Below are positions 46,162 to 53,786 of a DNA stretch of 64,000 bases, in pieces. Source of the stretch: an uncultured Thermoplasmatales archaeon (GTDB lineage Archaea; Thermoplasmatota; E2; DHVEG-1); contig CAZWZY010000001.1 in the NCBI GenBank assembly GCA_964638175.1, positions 62,257 to 126,256 of the forward strand, in the 5' to 3' direction. The notes beneath the pieces are model-generated. The model was not told where the DNA came from. It saw only the letters and a list, made by a program, of their open reading frames with translations, and made no database searches. Numbering within the stretch: position 1 is the stretch's first letter; each line of letters opens with the position of its first letter. The position numbers and the translations under genes were made by a program.

Positions 46162-46873
46162 GGTGGTTGTCAACTTTAGCACCTCGTTAAGTGATACATG
46201 CTTACAAAACAGTTCAACCAACTCTGCACAGTCCCAATTTTTGTATTATAAGGCCAATTCCGATAAAACCGTTTTATCCTATGTTTCAATAAGAAAAACC
46301 ACTGTTCTATCGGATTGCGCAAACCGAAAGTGATATGTTCCCATTCAACACCCAAACGTTGTAGTGCTGGTTTATACCAAGGACCACCATCAACCAATAT
46401 CTTTGGTTGATTAACACATTTTTTAAGGATATATTTTAAGAAACTATATGCTTCTATAGATGCACGACCACGTGTTACCCATATACCTAGTACTTCCCAG
46501 TTTGTTGTATCTATTGCAGCCCAGACAATATAGAGTTTTCCATTGATCTTTAGTTTGGTTTCATCAACTGCAACAACGGGTCTGTAGGTTTTACCTACTG
46601 AGAATATGGTATCAACTCTGTGATACCATTTACGAATACTTTCATGACTGATATCTTCAAAACCAGAGAGTATATTTTTACATTGTCTAAGAGAAAGCCC
46701 GTAATGATACATCAGTCTTCCAAGTGCTCTGGTCTTTCTTTGTTTTCGGTTTCGTACAAAAATATTTCTAGCTTCTAACAATTCCTCTAAGTGTGATAGC
46801 ATCCCATCCATTTGTTTTCACCAAAAAACAAGGATGGTTGCTATCATATTAAATTCTTAAGTTGACAACCACG
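46162..46873 (-). mobile_element. IS6-family-like insertion sequence (~710 bp) with 14-bp perfect terminal inverted repeats
   Basis: GTGGTTGTCAACTT at 46163-46176 and its reverse complement AAGTTGACAACCAC at 46859-46872 bracket a single DDE transposase gene. Confidence 0.7.
46176..46811 (-). CDS. IS6-family DDE transposase
   Basis: …VAVDETKLKINGKLYIVWAAID…ILVDGGPWY…NPIEQWF… fits the IS6-family D, D and E blocks. Confidence 0.8.
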   Translation of the reverse strand: MDGMLSHLEELLEARNIFVRNRKQRKTRALGRLMYHYGLSLRQCKNILSGFEDISHESIRKWYHRVDTIFSVGKTYRPVVAVDETKLKINGKLYIVWAAIDTTNWEVLGIWVTRGRASIEAYSFLKYILKKCVNQPKILVDGGPWYKPALQRLGVEWEHITFGLRNPIEQWFFLLKHRIKRFYRNWPYNTKIGTVQSWLNCFVSMYHLTRC

Positions 46874-47083: not shown

Positions 47084-48262
47084 TTATATGAGGCGAGATT
47101 GGCCTCGAACTTTATAATGTGCAAGTTCTTTGAATACTTCGTCTTCCTGTAAGATATTCATAATTTCCTCCGAAGAGGAGGATATTTTAATCTCTCGTGT
47201 TCGGCCGTATCTTCCCTTTGAAATAACACGTGCGGTGATAACTCCGAGCATGTCTAATTCAGAGACAAGGTCTGTAACCCTGCGCTGTGTTAATGTATCG
47301 GTTCGTGTTTTTTTGCATAGATCTTTGTATACCTCATATACCTCCCCCGTAGTGATTGCTCCTGCGATTTCTGCCTTTTTATTGTGTTTATCTTGCAACA
47401 GAATTGCAAAGAGAATGAGTTTTGATTGGGTTGGCAACGTTCTAACAACTTCAATAATACGATCAATTTCGATTTTGTTTTGGGCAAGTTTAACATACTT
47501 TTTAGTGATTTTTGGTGCTCCGTTTCGTTCTGCAAGTTCAGCAGATATCCGTAAGAGATCCAGTGCACGCCGGGCATCTCCGTGTTCTTGTGCGGCAAGC
47601 GCAGAACAAAGGGGAACGACATCATCATCGATGCTGCCTGGTTTGAGCGCAATATTAATTCGTTGTTTTAAAATATCTTGCAGTTCCCCGGCGTCATAGG
47701 GGGGGAAAATCATGTTTTCTTCGCCAAGACTGGATTTAACGCGTGGGTCAAGAAATTCGGTGAACTTAAGATCATTCGAAATACCGACGATAGATACTTT
47801 AGCGTTTGAAAGATTGCTATTTATACGAGAGAGATTGTAGAGTGCTTCGTCCCCTTTGAGCTTGTCAACCTCGTCAAGAATAATAACCGTTACACCACCA
47901 GCCCGGTCTATTGCTTCTCGTAACTTTGCATAAACCTCATCGGTTGGCCAACCAGTAAAGGGAATACGCTCAGACCACTCACTGATAAAATGATTGGCGA
48001 TGTTTTGAAGAAGGCGGTATTGAGTATCGACAACTTCACAGTTTATATAGATAAAATTTACATGTTTTCCAGTTTCTGTTCCTTTTCTCAAGAGTTCTTT
48101 GCCTACGAATTTAGTGACCGCGGTTTTTCCTGTCCCTGTTTTTCCATAAATAAAAACATTTGATGGTGTTTCGCCTCGCAACGCGGTGACAAGAACCGAG
48201 GCGAGGTCATTAATTTCCCTTCCTCTGTGCGGCAGTATTTCTGGCATGTAGGTAGGGCGCAT
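47084..48262 (-). CDS. cdc6: Orc1/Cdc6 replication initiator
   Basis: AAA+ motifs (Walker A GKTGTGKT, Walker B IILDEVD) and a C-terminal winged helix. Confidence 0.95.
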   Translation of the reverse strand: MRPTYMPEILPHRGREINDLASVLVTALRGETPSNVFIYGKTGTGKTAVTKFVGKELLRKGTETGKHVNFIYINCEVVDTQYRLLQNIANHFISEWSERIPFTGWPTDEVYAKLREAIDRAGGVTVIILDEVDKLKGDEALYNLSRINSNLSNAKVSIVGISNDLKFTEFLDPRVKSSLGEENMIFPPYDAGELQDILKQRINIALKPGSIDDDVVPLCSALAAQEHGDARRALDLLRISAELAERNGAPKITKKYVKLAQNKIEIDRIIEVVRTLPTQSKLILFAILLQDKHNKKAEIAGAITTGEVYEVYKDLCKKTRTDTLTQRRVTDLVSELDMLGVITARVISKGRYGRTREIKISSSSEEIMNILQEDEVFKELAHYKVRGQSRLI

Positions 48263-48434: not shown

Positions 48435-48460
48435 GGGGGAGGCCTTTGTTTCCTATGGAA
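48435..48460 (-). promoter_or_regulatory. Origin recognition box (ORB) element 1
   Basis: Reverse complement TTCCATAGGAAACAAAGGCCTCCCCC has a TTCC-N3-GGAAAC dyad plus a G/C string, as in archaeal ORBs. Confidence 0.6.
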
Positions 48461-48608
48461 GTTGTAACATTCCATATATTCATCTTATAATTTTTCTATA
48501 TTTATAATTTTAAAAATCGAATTATTGAAATACTACTAAAAACATAAAGTTCTGGAGATACTCACGTCATACTTCTAATATCACTTTCTACCACTCCCTC
48601 CTTTTATG
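48461..48608. promoter_or_regulatory. AT-rich candidate duplex-unwinding element between the two ORBs
   Basis: ~148 bp, very AT-rich (…tataatttttctatatttataattttaaaaatcgaattattgaaatactactaaaaacataaag…). Confidence 0.5.
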
Positions 48609-48634
48609 TTCCATAGGAAACAAAGGGGTCCCCC
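48609..48634 (+). promoter_or_regulatory. Origin recognition box (ORB) element 2, inverted relative to element 1
   Basis: TTCCATAGGAAACAAAGGGGTCCCCC shares an 18-nt perfect match with ORB1 in inverted orientation. Confidence 0.6.
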
Positions 48635-48975: not shown

Positions 48976-51186
48976 TTATAAATATTGAATATCTTTTTCG
49001 CTTTTATCCTTTTTGGCGATCCCGCTCCCCAACCCTTTGGACATTTTTGCGTAGAAATCCATAATTTCTGGTGTGAGGGAAGGATGGACACTATTCATTG
49101 CGGTGTCAAAATCTTGTTTTGTAACCTTTTTCGTTTTTTCGTTTTTTCTAACGGCAATCATTGCTGCCTCCCGGCATAACGCTTCTATATCAGCACCGGA
49201 ATAGTTATCACAAATTTTTGCTAGTTCTTTGATGTCAACGTCTTTATCAAGAGGCATTTCTTTGGTATGAATCTTAAATATTTCATGACGTGCCTTTTTG
49301 TCGGGGGCTGGAGTCAATATCAAACGATCAAATCGTCCTGGGCGCAACAAACCCTGATCTATAATGTCAGGTCTGTTTGTTGCTCCTATGACGATGACGC
49401 CCGTCATGCTTTCTAACCCATCGATACTGGTTAGCATTTGGTTAACAACACTGTCGGTAACATGCGACCCGCTGTAGGCCCCCCTCTTGGGGGCAATGGC
49501 ATCTAGTTCATCCAAAAAGACAATTGTGGGTGCGACTTGCCGAGCTTTTTTAAACAATTCGCGAACTGCCTTTTCACTTTCGCCAACCCACTTACTCATT
49601 ACTTCTGGGCCTTTTATAGAGATGAAGTTAGCTTTTGACTCATGCGCGACTGCTTTTGCAAGCAACGTTTTTCCCGTTCCGGGCGGGCCATAGAGAAGTA
49701 TGCCTCGGGGCGCTTGGATGCCCATTCGTTTGAACACCTCAGGCTTTGTTAGAGGCCATTCTACTGCCTCTCGTAAGTTTTGTTTTACATCTTCAAGACC
49801 CCCCACCTGCTCCCAAGTAATTTTTGGCACCTCAACAAAGAACTCTCTCATAGCAGATGGTTCTATCCCCCGATGTGCGTTTTCAAAGTCTTCTTTTGTT
49901 ACTTCCATTTTTTCAAGGACGTCTACTGGAATGGGTTTTTCTAGGTCGATTTCTGGGAGATATCTTCTAAGTGCATTCATGGCAGCTTCACGAGCAAGTG
50001 CCGCAAGATCAGCACCAACAAAACCATATGTTATGTCTGCCAGTTCATCTAAATTGCAATCGTCGCTCAGAGGCATCCCTCTGGTATGGATTTGTAAAAT
50101 TTCCTTCCTTCCTTTGCGGTCGGGTACTCCAATTCTAATCTCTCTATCAAATCTTCCTGGTCTTCGCAGCGCAGGGTCAACAGCATCAGGGATGTTAGTG
50201 GCCCCGATAACTATAAGTTTGCCTCTTCCCTTCAGACCATCCATCAAGGTCAGCATTTGGGAAACGACACGACGTTCAACCTCTCCATGGACTTCACTTC
50301 GCTTTGGAGCTATTGCATCAATTTCGTCGATGAAAATAATGGAGGGTGCATTTTTCTCAGCCTCCTCAAATATTTTCCGCAGATTCTCTTCTGATTGCCC
50401 ATAAAATTTACTCATGATTTCAGGACCATTGATTGTATAGAAATTCGCACCAGATTCATTGGCGACTGCTTTTGCAATTAGCGTCTTACCTGTTCCGGGG
50501 GGGCCATGTAACAAAACTCCTTTTGGAGGATCAATTCCTAAACGATCAAAAATATTAGGGTGCTTGATAGGCAGCTGAATCATTTCCTTTACTCGTTCAA
50601 GTTCTTCTTTGAGTCCCCCGATGTCTTCATAACTTACCCGTGGCCCTTCAACTTCTGTTGTTTGTACTGCTTCTTCCTTTACTTTGATAATTGTTTCTTC
50701 TCCTATCGAAACAATGCCTGACGGAACGGTGTTAGTGATAAGAAAGGGAAGAGCACTACCAAACAGCGCAATACCTGGAATGATGACACTATCGCCTTTC
50801 GTCAGCGGGCGCTTTAGCAGTCCTTTTTTTATGAGGACATCAATACCACTGCCGAACTGAATTTGTTGTCCTTTTGAGATTAGTGGAGCAAGGGTTACTT
50901 CACGAGCACTTTTTACTTCAGCGCCTCGTATTTTCACCCGATCTCCCAGACCAATGCCTGCATTTTTTCTTGTTAAATTGTCGATTCGAATAATCTGTTT
51001 TCCTTCATCAGTAGGATGTGCTCTCCATACTACTGCAGAGGTGGTTTTTGTACCCTCAATTTCTATAACATCTCCTATAGATAAATCTAAATCAATTCTT
51101 GCTTGGTGATCAATACGAGCTCGCCCATAACCAACATCTTGCTGGAATGCTTCAGATACTTTGAGTATTATTTCCTTTTGTTTCAT
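48976..51186 (-). CDS. cdc48: Cdc48/VCP-type AAA+ ATPase
   Basis: N domain plus two AAA modules, each with GPPGTGKT Walker A and DEID/DELD Walker B. Confidence 0.95.
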
Positions 51187-51311
51187 ATGCTCCCACCAAA
51201 TAGAATAGAGATGATTTTAGCAAGAAGAAAGACTCTCATATAAATGTTTCTATATATAAATAAGATAAGATATATTTAAATAATGATATAATTATATACT
51301 CTGGAAGGGCA

Positions 51312-51965
51312 ATGGACCTAAAATATTATTCCCTATTCCTTTCCATCGTTGGCATTCTTATTTTGTATGGTTTGTCCCTGCTCGCTCAACCAACCGTCGT
51401 AACACTTGCAGAGCTTCCGCACTACGAAGGAAAACAGGTTATTACTAAGGGGATTGTTGTCGAAAAGTATCAAACAAAATACGATAGCAACCTCATTGTA
51501 TTGAAAGAAAACAACACTACTGCAACAGTCTTTGTGGAAGGGACGCTCTCTTTTGTTATAGAATATGGCGATCTTCTTCAGGCAGAAGGGACAGTACAAC
51601 AATATAAAAATGAATGGGAGGTCGTTGTCGATGACGAAAAACAAGTAACCCTTCTTAAAAAGTGGCAAAACACCTCATTTCCTCTTTGGCAACTTGCAGA
51701 AGATCCAGAACGATATAAGGATACAAACGTCAATGTTACCGGTTATGTGGATGTTATTTATGACACCTATTTTTATCTCATAGACGAAGGAGAATTACAC
51801 TCCCTTGTTGTTTTTTGTACGACGACACAATATGACGCCCTTTTTCCAGGTGAGAAGGTCAGTGTTGCTGCCACCTTTCTCTTTGATGAACGCACTTTCC
51901 GTTATGGGCTAGATATTAACAAAGACGCTCATGGCATTACATCTATTAAAGGGGAGGATATATGA
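51312..51965 (+). CDS. Membrane-anchored protein with tandem OB-fold (BOF/YgiW-like) domains
   Basis: N-terminal TM (LFLSIVGILILYGLSLLA) then two …G.V…vidD….G…V… OB-like segments. Overlaps the downstream TctA-like gene by 4 nt. Confidence 0.4.
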   Translation: MDLKYYSLFLSIVGILILYGLSLLAQPTVVTLAELPHYEGKQVITKGIVVEKYQTKYDSNLIVLKENNTTATVFVEGTLSFVIEYGDLLQAEGTVQQYKNEWEVVVDDEKQVTLLKKWQNTSFPLWQLAEDPERYKDTNVNVTGYVDVIYDTYFYLIDEGELHSLVVFCTTTQYDALFPGEKVSVAATFLFDERTFRYGLDINKDAHGITSIKGEDI

Positions 51966-53302
51966 TAGATCTTCTATTATTGGTCCTTTTTTGCCTGATG
52001 GGTGTTATTACTGGAATTGCAACGGGGCTTCTCCCAGGATTGCATGTGAATAATATTGCACTCATCTTACTTTCTTTGTCAGGGGTTATCATTGGCGCGT
52101 TTAGTTTTTTATTTGAATTTGGCGTGTCAGAACAATTTATATTAGTTCTCATTGCAGTCTATATCATCTCCACTTCTATTAGTCACACCTTTCACGACGT
52201 CATTCCTTCCACGTTCCTCGGAGCACCTGATGAAGATACCGCACTTACTGTTCTCCCGGCACATTCTCTGTTGCTTGAAGGAAAAGGATACGAGGCTGTA
52301 GCACTTTCTGCACTAGGAAGCTATGGGGCAATTGTATTTTGCTTTCTTTTGTTAATTCCCCTTCGCCTCCTCATTGGAACGCCAATACAGCTATATGCAA
52401 CGTTACGCGAAATCATGCTTTGGGTGCTTATTGCCATTTCCATTCTTATGATAGCAACAGAAAAAGGAAAAATACATGCATTTCATGCAAAACCACCTCT
52501 CCCTTCATTTATAGGGATGTTATTTGCACTTTTTCTTTTTGTATTGTCAGGTATCTTTGGATTAATTATTTTTGATTTTTCTGTCGATTCCCCCATAGGT
52601 CTCTCATCACCAGTTTTATTTCCTGCTCTTGCTGGACTTTTTGGTACACCAACTCTTTTAACTTCCCTTCTTACAAAACCCACTATCCCCAAGCAAGATC
52701 TTACATTTCCCTCTCTTGATAAAAAAACCAAAAATTCCTCGGTATTATCTGTTATTACTGGAAGTTTTGGAGGTATTCTCGTATCTATCATTCCTGGCAT
52801 TACTTCTGCAACAGGAACCATTCTTGCAATGACCGCTAGGGGAGAGTCGGATAAGAGACAAACCATCATTACCCTTTCTGCAGTAAATACAGCATGTGCG
52901 TTCTTTGTCGTCGTTGTACTCTTTATTATCCTTCGGTCAAGGAGCGGGGCGACACTTGCAGTAAAACAACTTATTGCAGTAGAAGAATGGACGATGTTAC
53001 TTATGCCAGCACATTTAACATATTTTTTGATTGCGTTACTTCTGGGTGGCACATTGTCTTATTTTTTCACTCTTTTCATTGGCAAACTCTTTGCTAAATA
53101 TTTTGCCAACATCCCCTATACAAAACTTGTTCTGTTTACCCTTGCTATCATAACCCTTTTAGTTTTTCTTTTTACAGGGCTGGCGGGGCTACTAATCCTC
53201 ATTGTTGCAACCTGTATTGGGCTCCTCCCAGTCAATTGGGGAGTGCGGCGGAGCCATTGTATGGGCATTCTCCTTCTTCCTATCATTCTTTATTTTGTTT
53301 GA
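51962..53302 (+). CDS. TctA-family / DUF112 integral membrane protein
   Basis: …GIATGLLPGLHVNNIALIL… repeated DUF112-type segments across ~12 TM helices. Confidence 0.6.
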   Translation: MIDLLLLVLFCLMGVITGIATGLLPGLHVNNIALILLSLSGVIIGAFSFLFEFGVSEQFILVLIAVYIISTSISHTFHDVIPSTFLGAPDEDTALTVLPAHSLLLEGKGYEAVALSALGSYGAIVFCFLLLIPLRLLIGTPIQLYATLREIMLWVLIAISILMIATEKGKIHAFHAKPPLPSFIGMLFALFLFVLSGIFGLIIFDFSVDSPIGLSSPVLFPALAGLFGTPTLLTSLLTKPTIPKQDLTFPSLDKKTKNSSVLSVITGSFGGILVSIIPGITSATGTILAMTARGESDKRQTIITLSAVNTACAFFVVVVLFIILRSRSGATLAVKQLIAVEEWTMLLMPAHLTYFLIALLLGGTLSYFFTLFIGKLFAKYFANIPYTKLVLFTLAIITLLVFLFTGLAGLLILIVATCIGLLPVNWGVRRSHCMGILLLPIILYFV

Positions 53303-53786
53303 TCACGATCTGATTTACTGATGCAAAAAATTCAGAAAGAGAAACCCCTGTTGCTTTACCAAAAAGCAGGGCAGCAACCTCAGAGGAGATGTGTTTTTTC
53401 TTTGCCAATTCCCGTACCTTCTCATGCACCCCCCCCTCTTTCATTGCACGTTCTTTGGCGATTTTTTGTATTATTGATCGTAACACAGATTCACTTATTT
53501 GTCCACTCTTTTTCACGTCCTCTCCCTCATCTTGTATGGTGGCTTGAGATGGTTGAAAACCGACAGGAACAGATACCGAGTCAATATTGAAGGTAGGTGA
53601 TAAAGCGTCATCTCGTTTCGTCAACAACTTTTTTGTTATCGCCTTTTCCACAAAATTTTTTGCTTGTGTTGGAGAAAACCAGTTAAGATCCATGGATAGT
53701 GAGAGGCAAAAATCAGAAACCGAAATCTTTGTTTCCCCCTCTCGTTTAAAAAGAAAAGTGATGACAATTTCTTCTTCAGAGGCCAT
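53283..53786 (-). CDS. Hypothetical protein (167 aa)
   Basis: ORF only. Overlaps the 5' neighbour by 11 nt, so probably co-transcribed with it. Confidence 0.35.
   Translation of the reverse strand: MASEEEIVITFLFKREGETKISVSDFCLSLSMDLNWFSPTQAKNFVEKAITKKLLTKRDDALSPTFNIDSVSVPVGFQPSQATIQDEGEDVKKSGQISESVLRSIIQKIAKERAMKEGGVHEKVRELAKKKHISSEVAALLFGKATGVSLSEFFASVNQIVIKQNKE

Follow-up and report, generated by a model that had tools for sequence, protein, structure and literature searches.

What does a TctA-like membrane protein work with when the gene beside it encodes neither TctB nor TctC, and instead a membrane-tethered protein with OB folds? The question is raised by two same-strand open reading frames (ORFs) in a 64-kb stretch of DNA, called the window below, from an uncultivated Thermoplasmatota archaeon (contig CAZWZY010000001.1). 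The first-pass annotation of the window had described a 217-aa ORF, with a transmembrane (TM) anchor and two OB segments, that overlaps by 4 nt a 446-aa TctA ORF, and this description was confirmed by the ORFs themselves, the shared ATGA, the PF01970 match and AlphaFold2 (AF2) modeling. The answer that we favor, and which we consider evenly poised between right and wrong, is that the pair is the Thermoplasmatota version of a natural transformation (DNA uptake) module. The two genes and their junction are as follows.

51312..51965, + strand: gene for the 217-aa membrane-anchored tandem OB-fold protein (ORF; 38 close homologues; AF2 model with a mean confidence score, pLDDT, of 86.8).
51951..51965, + strand: coupling junction, in which the Shine-Dalgarno-like run GGGGAGGA is followed by ATGA, the TctA start overlapping the OB stop.
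51962..53302, + strand: gene for the 446-aa TctA-like polytopic membrane protein (PF01970, arCOG04469-type; Pfam match over the full length, E=4.2e-53).

The GGGGAGGA run sits 4 nt 5′ of the second ATG, that of the 446-aa ORF, and we propose that the 446-aa protein is made in step with the 217-aa protein through the overlapping stop and start codons. The 446-aa protein matched TctA with 180.9 bits against a cut-off of 28.9, over positions 2-422 of the 423 in the profile; this was its only Pfam family, and the Competence domain PF03772 was not matched. There were 938 homologues at E<=1e-10, the best 120 of them at 73-90% identity. The TctA family has a conserved G-Hy3-G-Hy3-G-Hy2-P-G motif in the first TM segment (Winnen 2003, as quoted in PMC5812351), and the window protein carries it.

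52001..52039, + strand: TM1 motif G-x3-G-x3-G-x2-P-G (GVITGIATGLLPG, residues 14-26; from the translation, and invariant in alignment A2).

No 4-TM TctB is encoded in the operon, which has two genes only and whose sole partner protein has one TM helix. Likewise, the operon encodes no TctC/Bug solute-binding protein, and the ten TctC-sized ORFs elsewhere in the 64-kb window belong to other families. An AF2 model of the 446-aa protein, made from a shallow alignment of 23 sequences, had a mean pLDDT of 50.5, too low for fold comparison, and no PDB entry was found to be sequence-related to TctA.

The partner was more accessible to modeling. The AF2 model of the 217-aa protein, based on an alignment of 36 homologues, comprises a helix at residues 3-25 and two beta-barrel OB domains, so that the OB fold for which the first-pass annotation had proposed structure prediction as a check is predicted with confidence. 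The parts of the protein are encoded as follows.

51318..51386, + strand: N-terminal TM helix, residues 3-25 of the AF2 model, a predicted N-in/C-out signal anchor with the conserved pattern S..GI..LY..S....P.
51393..51659, + strand: first OB domain, residues ~28-116.
51660..51716, + strand: linker between the OB domains, bearing the clade-specific motif KWQNTSFPLWQLAEDPERY with its conserved N-x-S/T sequon.
51726..51944, + strand: second OB domain, residues ~139-211 (strands 139-211 in the AF2 model), with a conserved N-V-T sequon at its start.

The net charge changes from +1.4 before the TM helix to -1.9 after it, and the sequence signals point to an N-in/C-out topology with the OB domains outside the cell. 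Sequons of the N-x-S/T type are 2.4-fold more frequent in the OB protein than in shuffles, with three positionally conserved sites; the linker sequon is kept in 39 of 54 members and the N-V-T sequon in 46 of 54. The OB ectodomain is probably N-glycosylated. The linker is the lowest-entropy block of alignment A1, and its residues W118, L125, P132 and Y135 are invariant in the 36-homologue alignment. The TM helix ranks among the top two segments for conservation, also in the family alignment at ~25% identity, and we infer that its conservation may reflect specific intramembrane packing.

When the model was compared with the PDB by Foldseek, tandem-OB nucleic-acid binders came first, with Teb1 AB at 3.6e-8, followed by POT1, HIN-200, LEF-3 and the OB domain of Asp/Asn-tRNA synthetase; the tandem-OB matches were Teb1, POT1 and HIN-200. 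Among Pfam families, DUF4131, the OB domain of the bacterial DNA-uptake protein ComEC (PMC6299819), matched 19 of 36 family members, with sub-threshold to moderate scores (best E 8.9e-7) and over a span that takes in the TM helix and the first OB domain. The window protein itself matched at E=0.022, which falls short of the cut-off, and we read the DUF4131 likeness of the family as resemblance, not membership. The first-pass annotation had called the protein BOF-like. BOF or YgiW-YdeI proteins (PF04076) are likewise small extracytoplasmic OB-fold proteins, and BOF matched one protein in the Pfam scan of the family; the window protein falls outside PF04076, and the label gives way to OB types that bind nucleic acids, DUF4131 included. 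Judged by the closest folds and Pfam families, the modeled OB domains are of the nucleic-acid-binding type.

The OB family is large. When the OB profile was run with HMMER against 1.84 billion representatives, 1,439 proteins were returned at E<=1e-3, including 236 at E<=1e-10, and nearly all share the layout of an N-terminal TM helix followed by OB. A profile built from the divergent OB members alone retrieved 9 proteins. Some of the hits, namely P0255 (1074 aa), P0286 (1197 aa), P0293 (1352 aa), P0161, P0205 and P0221, are long proteins in which the OB unit occurs 3 to 11 times; judging from these sequences, the unit appears to be amplified in other architectures.

The pairing was then followed across archaea. 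The TctA alignment was scanned against one genome per GTDB species, which gave 80 loci, and all ORFs in these loci were searched with OB and TctA hidden Markov models. Close relatives share a syntenic block of Cdc6, PRC-barrel, Cdc48, OB, TctA, DUF2240 and PEP synthase genes, and because the whole block is shared, adjacency of the OB and TctA genes could there be mere synteny. The frequency with which an OB gene lies directly upstream of TctA was as follows.

Thermoplasmatota clade (TctA at least 57% identical): 49 of 49 loci, counting L015, for which the miss by the script was an ORF-calling artifact.
Hadarchaeota: 3 of 3 loci.
Hydrothermarchaeota: 1 of 1 locus, with a single-OB version.
Methanosarcinales, MGII-like Thermoplasmata, Nanohaloarchaeota, Altiarchaeota, Undinarchaeota, Woesearchaeota and others: 0 of 22 loci.

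Of 52 related loci, 19 have OB stop and TctA start overlapping, 32 have them 0-30 nt apart and one has a gap of 42 nt. Four divergent OB members (P0206, P0309, P0308 and P0307) lie in unrelated neighborhoods, with HhH-GPD and integrase or TBP and methylase genes, and each is then followed directly by TctA. As order and tight spacing recur in non-syntenic contexts, the linkage is regarded as functional. The co-occurrence analysis that the first-pass annotation had suggested thus found the 217-aa ORF conserved next to DUF112/TctA well beyond local synteny, and with the predicted OB fold this upholds its view of the OB protein as an extracytoplasmic partner of an archaeal TctA without TctB or TctC. 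Its extension to archaeal DUF112 proteins in general was not borne out, as the OB gene flanks no TctA in Methanosarcinales, MGII-like Thermoplasmata or DPANN.

In the lineages that have no OB gene upstream, none was found downstream of TctA either. The linkage is lineage-restricted, and some genomes carry an OB homologue elsewhere; P0299, for instance, appears on the same 53.8-kb Methanomassiliicoccales contig as locus L063, at a distance of over 4 kb from TctA. Neither the breadth of the OB family nor that of its linkage to TctA had been described before. Three variations on the arrangement were observed. At the Hydrothermarchaeota locus (L055:3612-3986) the partner upstream of TctA is short (~125 aa), with a TM helix and a single OB domain; therefore, not every family member has the second OB domain. 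At L107:1570-3060, a PLDc_2 gene (phospholipase D/nuclease family) takes the place of TctA behind a partial OB-family match (P0310, 280 aa), which may be another arrangement of a surface OB protein with a nuclease. In DPANN or unclassified loci (L057:3620-3916, L060:3467-3763, L065:1925-2221 and L077:2346-2633), the gene directly upstream of TctA encodes a conserved basic protein of ~98 aa (MAEKKYYVLRKGGKDTNHVYTGKGPHQAALKAATDG...), not OB, which we take to resemble the chromatin protein MC1.

The arrangement is not a new one: a pair of this kind had already been reported in Methanococcus maripaludis. By transposon screening of this species, Fonseca et al. 2023 (PMC10133366) obtained hits in MMJJ_13020 and MMJJ_13030. 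MMJJ_13020 is a single-TM OB protein, and the adjoining MMJJ_13030 is TctA-like with 11 TM helices; in-frame deletion of either gene led to loss of natural transformation, and both deletions were complemented (PMC10133366). Deletion of the TctA homologue of Methanoculleus thermophilus likewise abolished natural transformation, and in the authors' proposal it is the TctA-like protein that transports DNA in archaea (PMC10133366). The M. maripaludis screen also yielded pilus, archaeosortase and peptidase genes (PMC10133366). No literature following up Fonseca et al. 2023 on this pair was found.

We therefore compared the window pair with what the primers in PMC10133366 reveal of the M. maripaludis genes. 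MMJJ_13020 reads M(ttg)SSLILNDKKI…SYCEERD, and its TAA abuts the MMJJ_13030 ATG; MMJJ_13030 reads MINNLFFLIFG…TILYFLKI, and the window TctA reads MIDLLLLVLFC…PIILYFV. The TctA termini are collinear and both have ILYF, and the OB N-terminus (MSSLILNDKKI) is uninformative. As the coupling and both TctA termini correspond, orthology of the window pair to MMJJ_13020/MMJJ_13030 is suggested. An exact 26-mer of the M. maripaludis locus derived from the primers was absent from metagenomes, a wobble-degenerate pattern gave 14 chance hits, none with a TctA or OB gene, and the SYCEERD C-terminus was in none of the proteins retrieved. In both species a single-TM OB protein lies immediately upstream of a TctA-like protein, with neither TctB nor TctC. 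The stop and start codons form TAAATG in M. maripaludis, a member of the Methanococcales, whereas they form ATGA in the uncultivated Thermoplasmatota window. The window protein has two OB domains and the clade-specific linker KWQNxSFPLWQLAENP; MMJJ_13020 was compared by its description and its primer-derived ends.

Archaeal TctA homologues without TctB and TctC have been known since Winnen et al. 2003, as cited in PMC5812351 and PMC5898192, and Makarova et al. 2015 (PMC5898192) described arCOG04469 as mostly stand-alone genes with a predicted role in carboxylate transport. The window pair resembles TctABC (TTT family, TC 2.A.80) in having a full-length PF01970 subunit with G-x3-G-x3-G-x2-P-G and an extracytoplasmic partner. 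However, TctABC has a 4-TM TctB and a TctC/Bug protein where the window has a membrane-tethered tandem OB protein. At 446 aa the TctA of the window is also the shorter, and what has been published as lost in mutants of the archaeal pair is DNA transformation rather than carboxylate uptake. With bacterial ComEC/ComEA, the likeness would be one of function, an exposed, membrane-attached OB domain being paired with a polytopic membrane protein on which DNA uptake depends. ComEC joins DUF4131, the Competence channel domain and Lactamase_B, whereas the window pair has neither PF03772 nor a nuclease domain, its membrane part belongs to the unrelated TctA family, and its OB and membrane parts are separate polypeptides.

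In the DNA-uptake module that we favor, the 217-aa protein, tethered by its single N-terminal helix, would display two OB domains of the nucleic-acid type outside the cell. Acting after type IV-like pili, this ectodomain would take hold of incoming DNA on the surface of the membrane and would hand it to the TctA-like polytopic partner, or gate that partner. OB protein and TctA-like protein together would then be a functional analogue of the OB (DUF4131) and channel parts of ComEC. We infer direct DNA binding by the ectodomain and translocation through TctA. Because of the Methanococcus phenotype and the nucleic-acid type of the OB domains, DNA is a likelier ligand than a carboxylate. The first-pass annotation had suggested an alternative substrate-capture or regulatory partner; the partner relation stands, and the small-solute ligand gives way to DNA, although small-solute capture is still a live rival.

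Several observations weigh against DNA uptake. The superfamily of TctA is one of secondary transporters for small solutes, and we know of no member of it demonstrated to move a polymer. Thermoplasmatota are not known to be competent. The ectodomain is acidic, at a net charge of about -9, which is unusual for a non-specific DNA binder and counts against simple electrostatic DNA binding. When the 217-aa protein was searched alone, its OB-type Pfam hits were all below the gathering threshold. Orthology to MMJJ_13020/13030 rests on architecture, shared Pfam families and ~20 terminal residues, and the Methanococcus phenotype could be indirect. Lastly, the pair is not adjacent in many TctA-bearing archaea, including the group that contains M. 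thermophilus, in which the authors found no clear OB homologue (PMC10133366).

The main rival, close to the suggestion of the first-pass annotation, is a two-component secondary transporter for small solutes. TctA would then be ion-coupled, and the OB protein would replace both TctB, with its TM helix as scaffold, and TctC, with its ectodomain as a tethered substrate-binding domain; the transformation defect in Methanococcus would be indirect. Membership in the TctA family and the acidic ectodomain speak for such a transporter, and we hold it to be somewhat unlikely, since both genes were needed for transformation in a clean genetic test and TctA was needed in a second genus. Moreover, the nearest folds and Pfam families are nucleic-acid binders rather than solute-binding OB types, and no metabolic gene was linked to the pair in any neighborhood examined, where the neighbors included HhH-GPD, integrase, methylase and TBP genes.

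Dependence of transformation on the pair would also be indirect if the two proteins formed a membrane complex with some other task in the envelope, for example in building or anchoring pili or surface structures, in signaling, or as a receptor for viruses or mobile elements. The pilus, archaeosortase and peptidase genes from the Methanococcus screen are in keeping with such a role, as is a surface-exposed and probably glycosylated ectodomain, and the mobile island that targets TctA in many relatives (described below) would also fit a receptor or exclusion scenario. Yet genes for pilus or envelope biogenesis were linked to the pair in no locus examined, and the OB type points to nucleic acids; we consider the role improbable. 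By far the least probable explanation is that the OB and TctA genes are neighbors through inherited gene order only and have no joint function. The synteny of the block from Cdc6 to PEP synthase within the close clade is what such inheritance would leave behind, but the same order with tight spacing (51 of 52 loci at <=30 nt or overlapping) is found in Hadarchaeota, Hydrothermarchaeota and the four divergent members with different neighbors, and both genes give the same Methanococcus phenotype, by which this explanation is effectively refuted.

The TctA gene proved to be the target of a transposase-bearing island in relatives of the window archaeon. In the window the target site is empty and intact, and no copy of the island repeat or its transposase was found in the 64 kb.

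52215..52219, + strand: empty target site TCCTC at the end of TctA codon 86 (ACG TTC CTC/GGA GCA, cut in relatives between CTC and GGA).

About a dozen loci in the TctA scan had matched residues 1-86 only. A census of this junction in 48 related loci found 34 intact; in 11 the insertion lies at one identical nucleotide and always in one orientation, and 3 are contigs that break off exactly there. The loci interrupted after codon 86 are L004/L106, L047, L067, L068, L070, L074, L075 and L078-L081. At the junction, …TF[L/I] is followed by CAGTAG…, which creates a Q-stop, and the inserted DNA starts with the terminal repeat CAGTAGTTCCGAA. After the repeat, most interrupted loci have a DDE transposase of ~530 aa (PF01609 and DUF772) on the opposite strand and, after it, a small Zn-ribbon ORF and then variable cargo (HxlR-type regulators, methylase); the cargo in L106 includes a PD-(D/E)XK protein and a type IIG restriction-modification enzyme of 1,088 aa. 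At the same insertion site in L078 (3950-6754, minus strand), a 934-aa RNase_H_2 and IS66-type DDE protein replaces the usual transposase, which suggests nested or exchanged elements. No relative of the island transposase was found in the viral contig collection.

Only L047, which holds a small deleted copy of 625 bp, shows both ends of the island, with both inverted repeats and a 5-bp TCCTC duplication; it also has a frameshift further down TctA. TctA residues 87-446 were absent within 10 kb in L106 and within ~4 kb in the other long loci; both scan patterns lay in residues 1-86, and a separate C-terminal TctA gene would therefore have been missed. A simple insertion sequence (IS) of 2 kb was rejected, as five long loci showed neither a right terminal repeat nor TctA 87-446 within 4-10 kb. 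L004 had been considered as an OB gene without TctA, and this was also rejected, because a stub of TctA remains at the locus and the insertion interrupts the gene.

Interrupted loci are interleaved with intact ones: L074 and L075 stand next to the intact L010 (90% OB identity), and the nearest relative of L068 is the intact window sequence. L079, L080 and L081 form an all-interrupted clade. The ratio of nonsynonymous to synonymous substitution rates (dN/dS) in that clade was 0.04-0.08 for the 86-codon stub at dS 0.8-3.7 (the upper end being saturated), 0.05-0.15 for the OB gene and 0.05-0.09 for the transposase. Overall, stub, OB gene and transposase had dN/dS of 0.02-0.15, indicating purifying selection, and they have co-diverged. 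Between L079 and L080, the dS of the transposase (0.81) was similar to that of host genes (0.83 and 0.53). Given the low dN/dS and the host-like dS of the transposase, the interruption in this clade is old, vertically inherited and kept under selection. The interrupted TctA may be split into two genes, be restored by excision, or leave a stub of three TM helices that works alone. Three metagenome-assembled genomes have assembly branch points at the site (L038/L082, L039/L083 and L022/L087), as a mixture of intact and interrupted alleles could produce.

That TctA is interrupted recurrently, and under selection, at one codon is the most surprising item of this analysis, and it opens an unexpected and independent way into the biology of the gene. 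To our knowledge archaea have no ComEC, and the OB and TctA-like pair of M. maripaludis is the only genetic lead that we know of on how they import DNA. The present data provide a comparative basis on which this lead can be tested, namely an OB family of ~1,400 representatives with a conserved TM helix, tight coupling to TctA in several archaeal phyla, and tandem OB domains of nucleic-acid type that are predicted to face outward. They suggest that abundant uncultivated sediment archaea may be competent. A broader proposal would have the pair as an archaeal DNA-import machine, a non-homologous analogue of ComEA/ComEC, in Thermoplasmatota, Hadarchaeota and Hydrothermarchaeota and, in Thermoplasmatota, as the fixed target of an island that splits TctA at codon 86 and is stably inherited under selection; taken as a whole, we regard this as unlikely. 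If it were true, the island would be an archaeal case of mobile elements disabling host competence, or else an excision-type genetic switch on a competence gene. Insertion of mobile elements into bacterial competence genes is well documented (PMC4774983, PMC11441513, PMC12378983), and the parallel is suggestive only.

In the window, the pair lies between a divergent Cdc48 AAA ATPase gene upstream (48976..51186) and a convergent DUF2240 gene downstream (53283..53786, minus strand), which overlaps the 3′ end of TctA by 20 nt. Flanked in this way, it is a self-contained two-gene unit. The intergenic stretch that the pair shares with the Cdc48 gene is the presumed promoter of the operon.

51187..51311, + strand: AT-rich intergenic stretch with TATA-like runs, and GGAAGGG 3 nt before the ATG.

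Scans of the operon for bacterial-type promoters and terminators were uninformative. Among the close relatives examined, the DUF2240 gene keeps its place next to the pair or not far from it, and in NCBIfam its product weakly matches the N-terminus of replication factor A (E=1.3e-4).

Two further features were observed on the far side of the Cdc48 gene. An ORF for an IS6/IS240-family DDE transposase (46176-46811, minus strand; PF13610, E=1e-12) lies between an HGSNAT-like acyltransferase gene and the Orc1/Cdc6 gene (47084..48262, minus strand). This ORF has no relation to the TctA-targeting island and, because relative L005 has the same two flanking genes with no transposase gene called between them, it looks like a lineage-specific IS insertion. 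Upstream of Orc1/Cdc6, at 48435-48634, a 26-nt inverted pair (GGGGGAGGCCTTTGTTTCCTATGGAA / TTCCATAGGAAACAAAGGGGTCCCCC, 92% complementary) flanks an AT-rich stretch of 148 nt, a layout reminiscent of a DNA-unwinding element between origin recognition boxes. In the window the cumulative GC skew has its maximum at ~44-46 kb, and a replication origin is probable ~2.7 kb from the OB and TctA pair.

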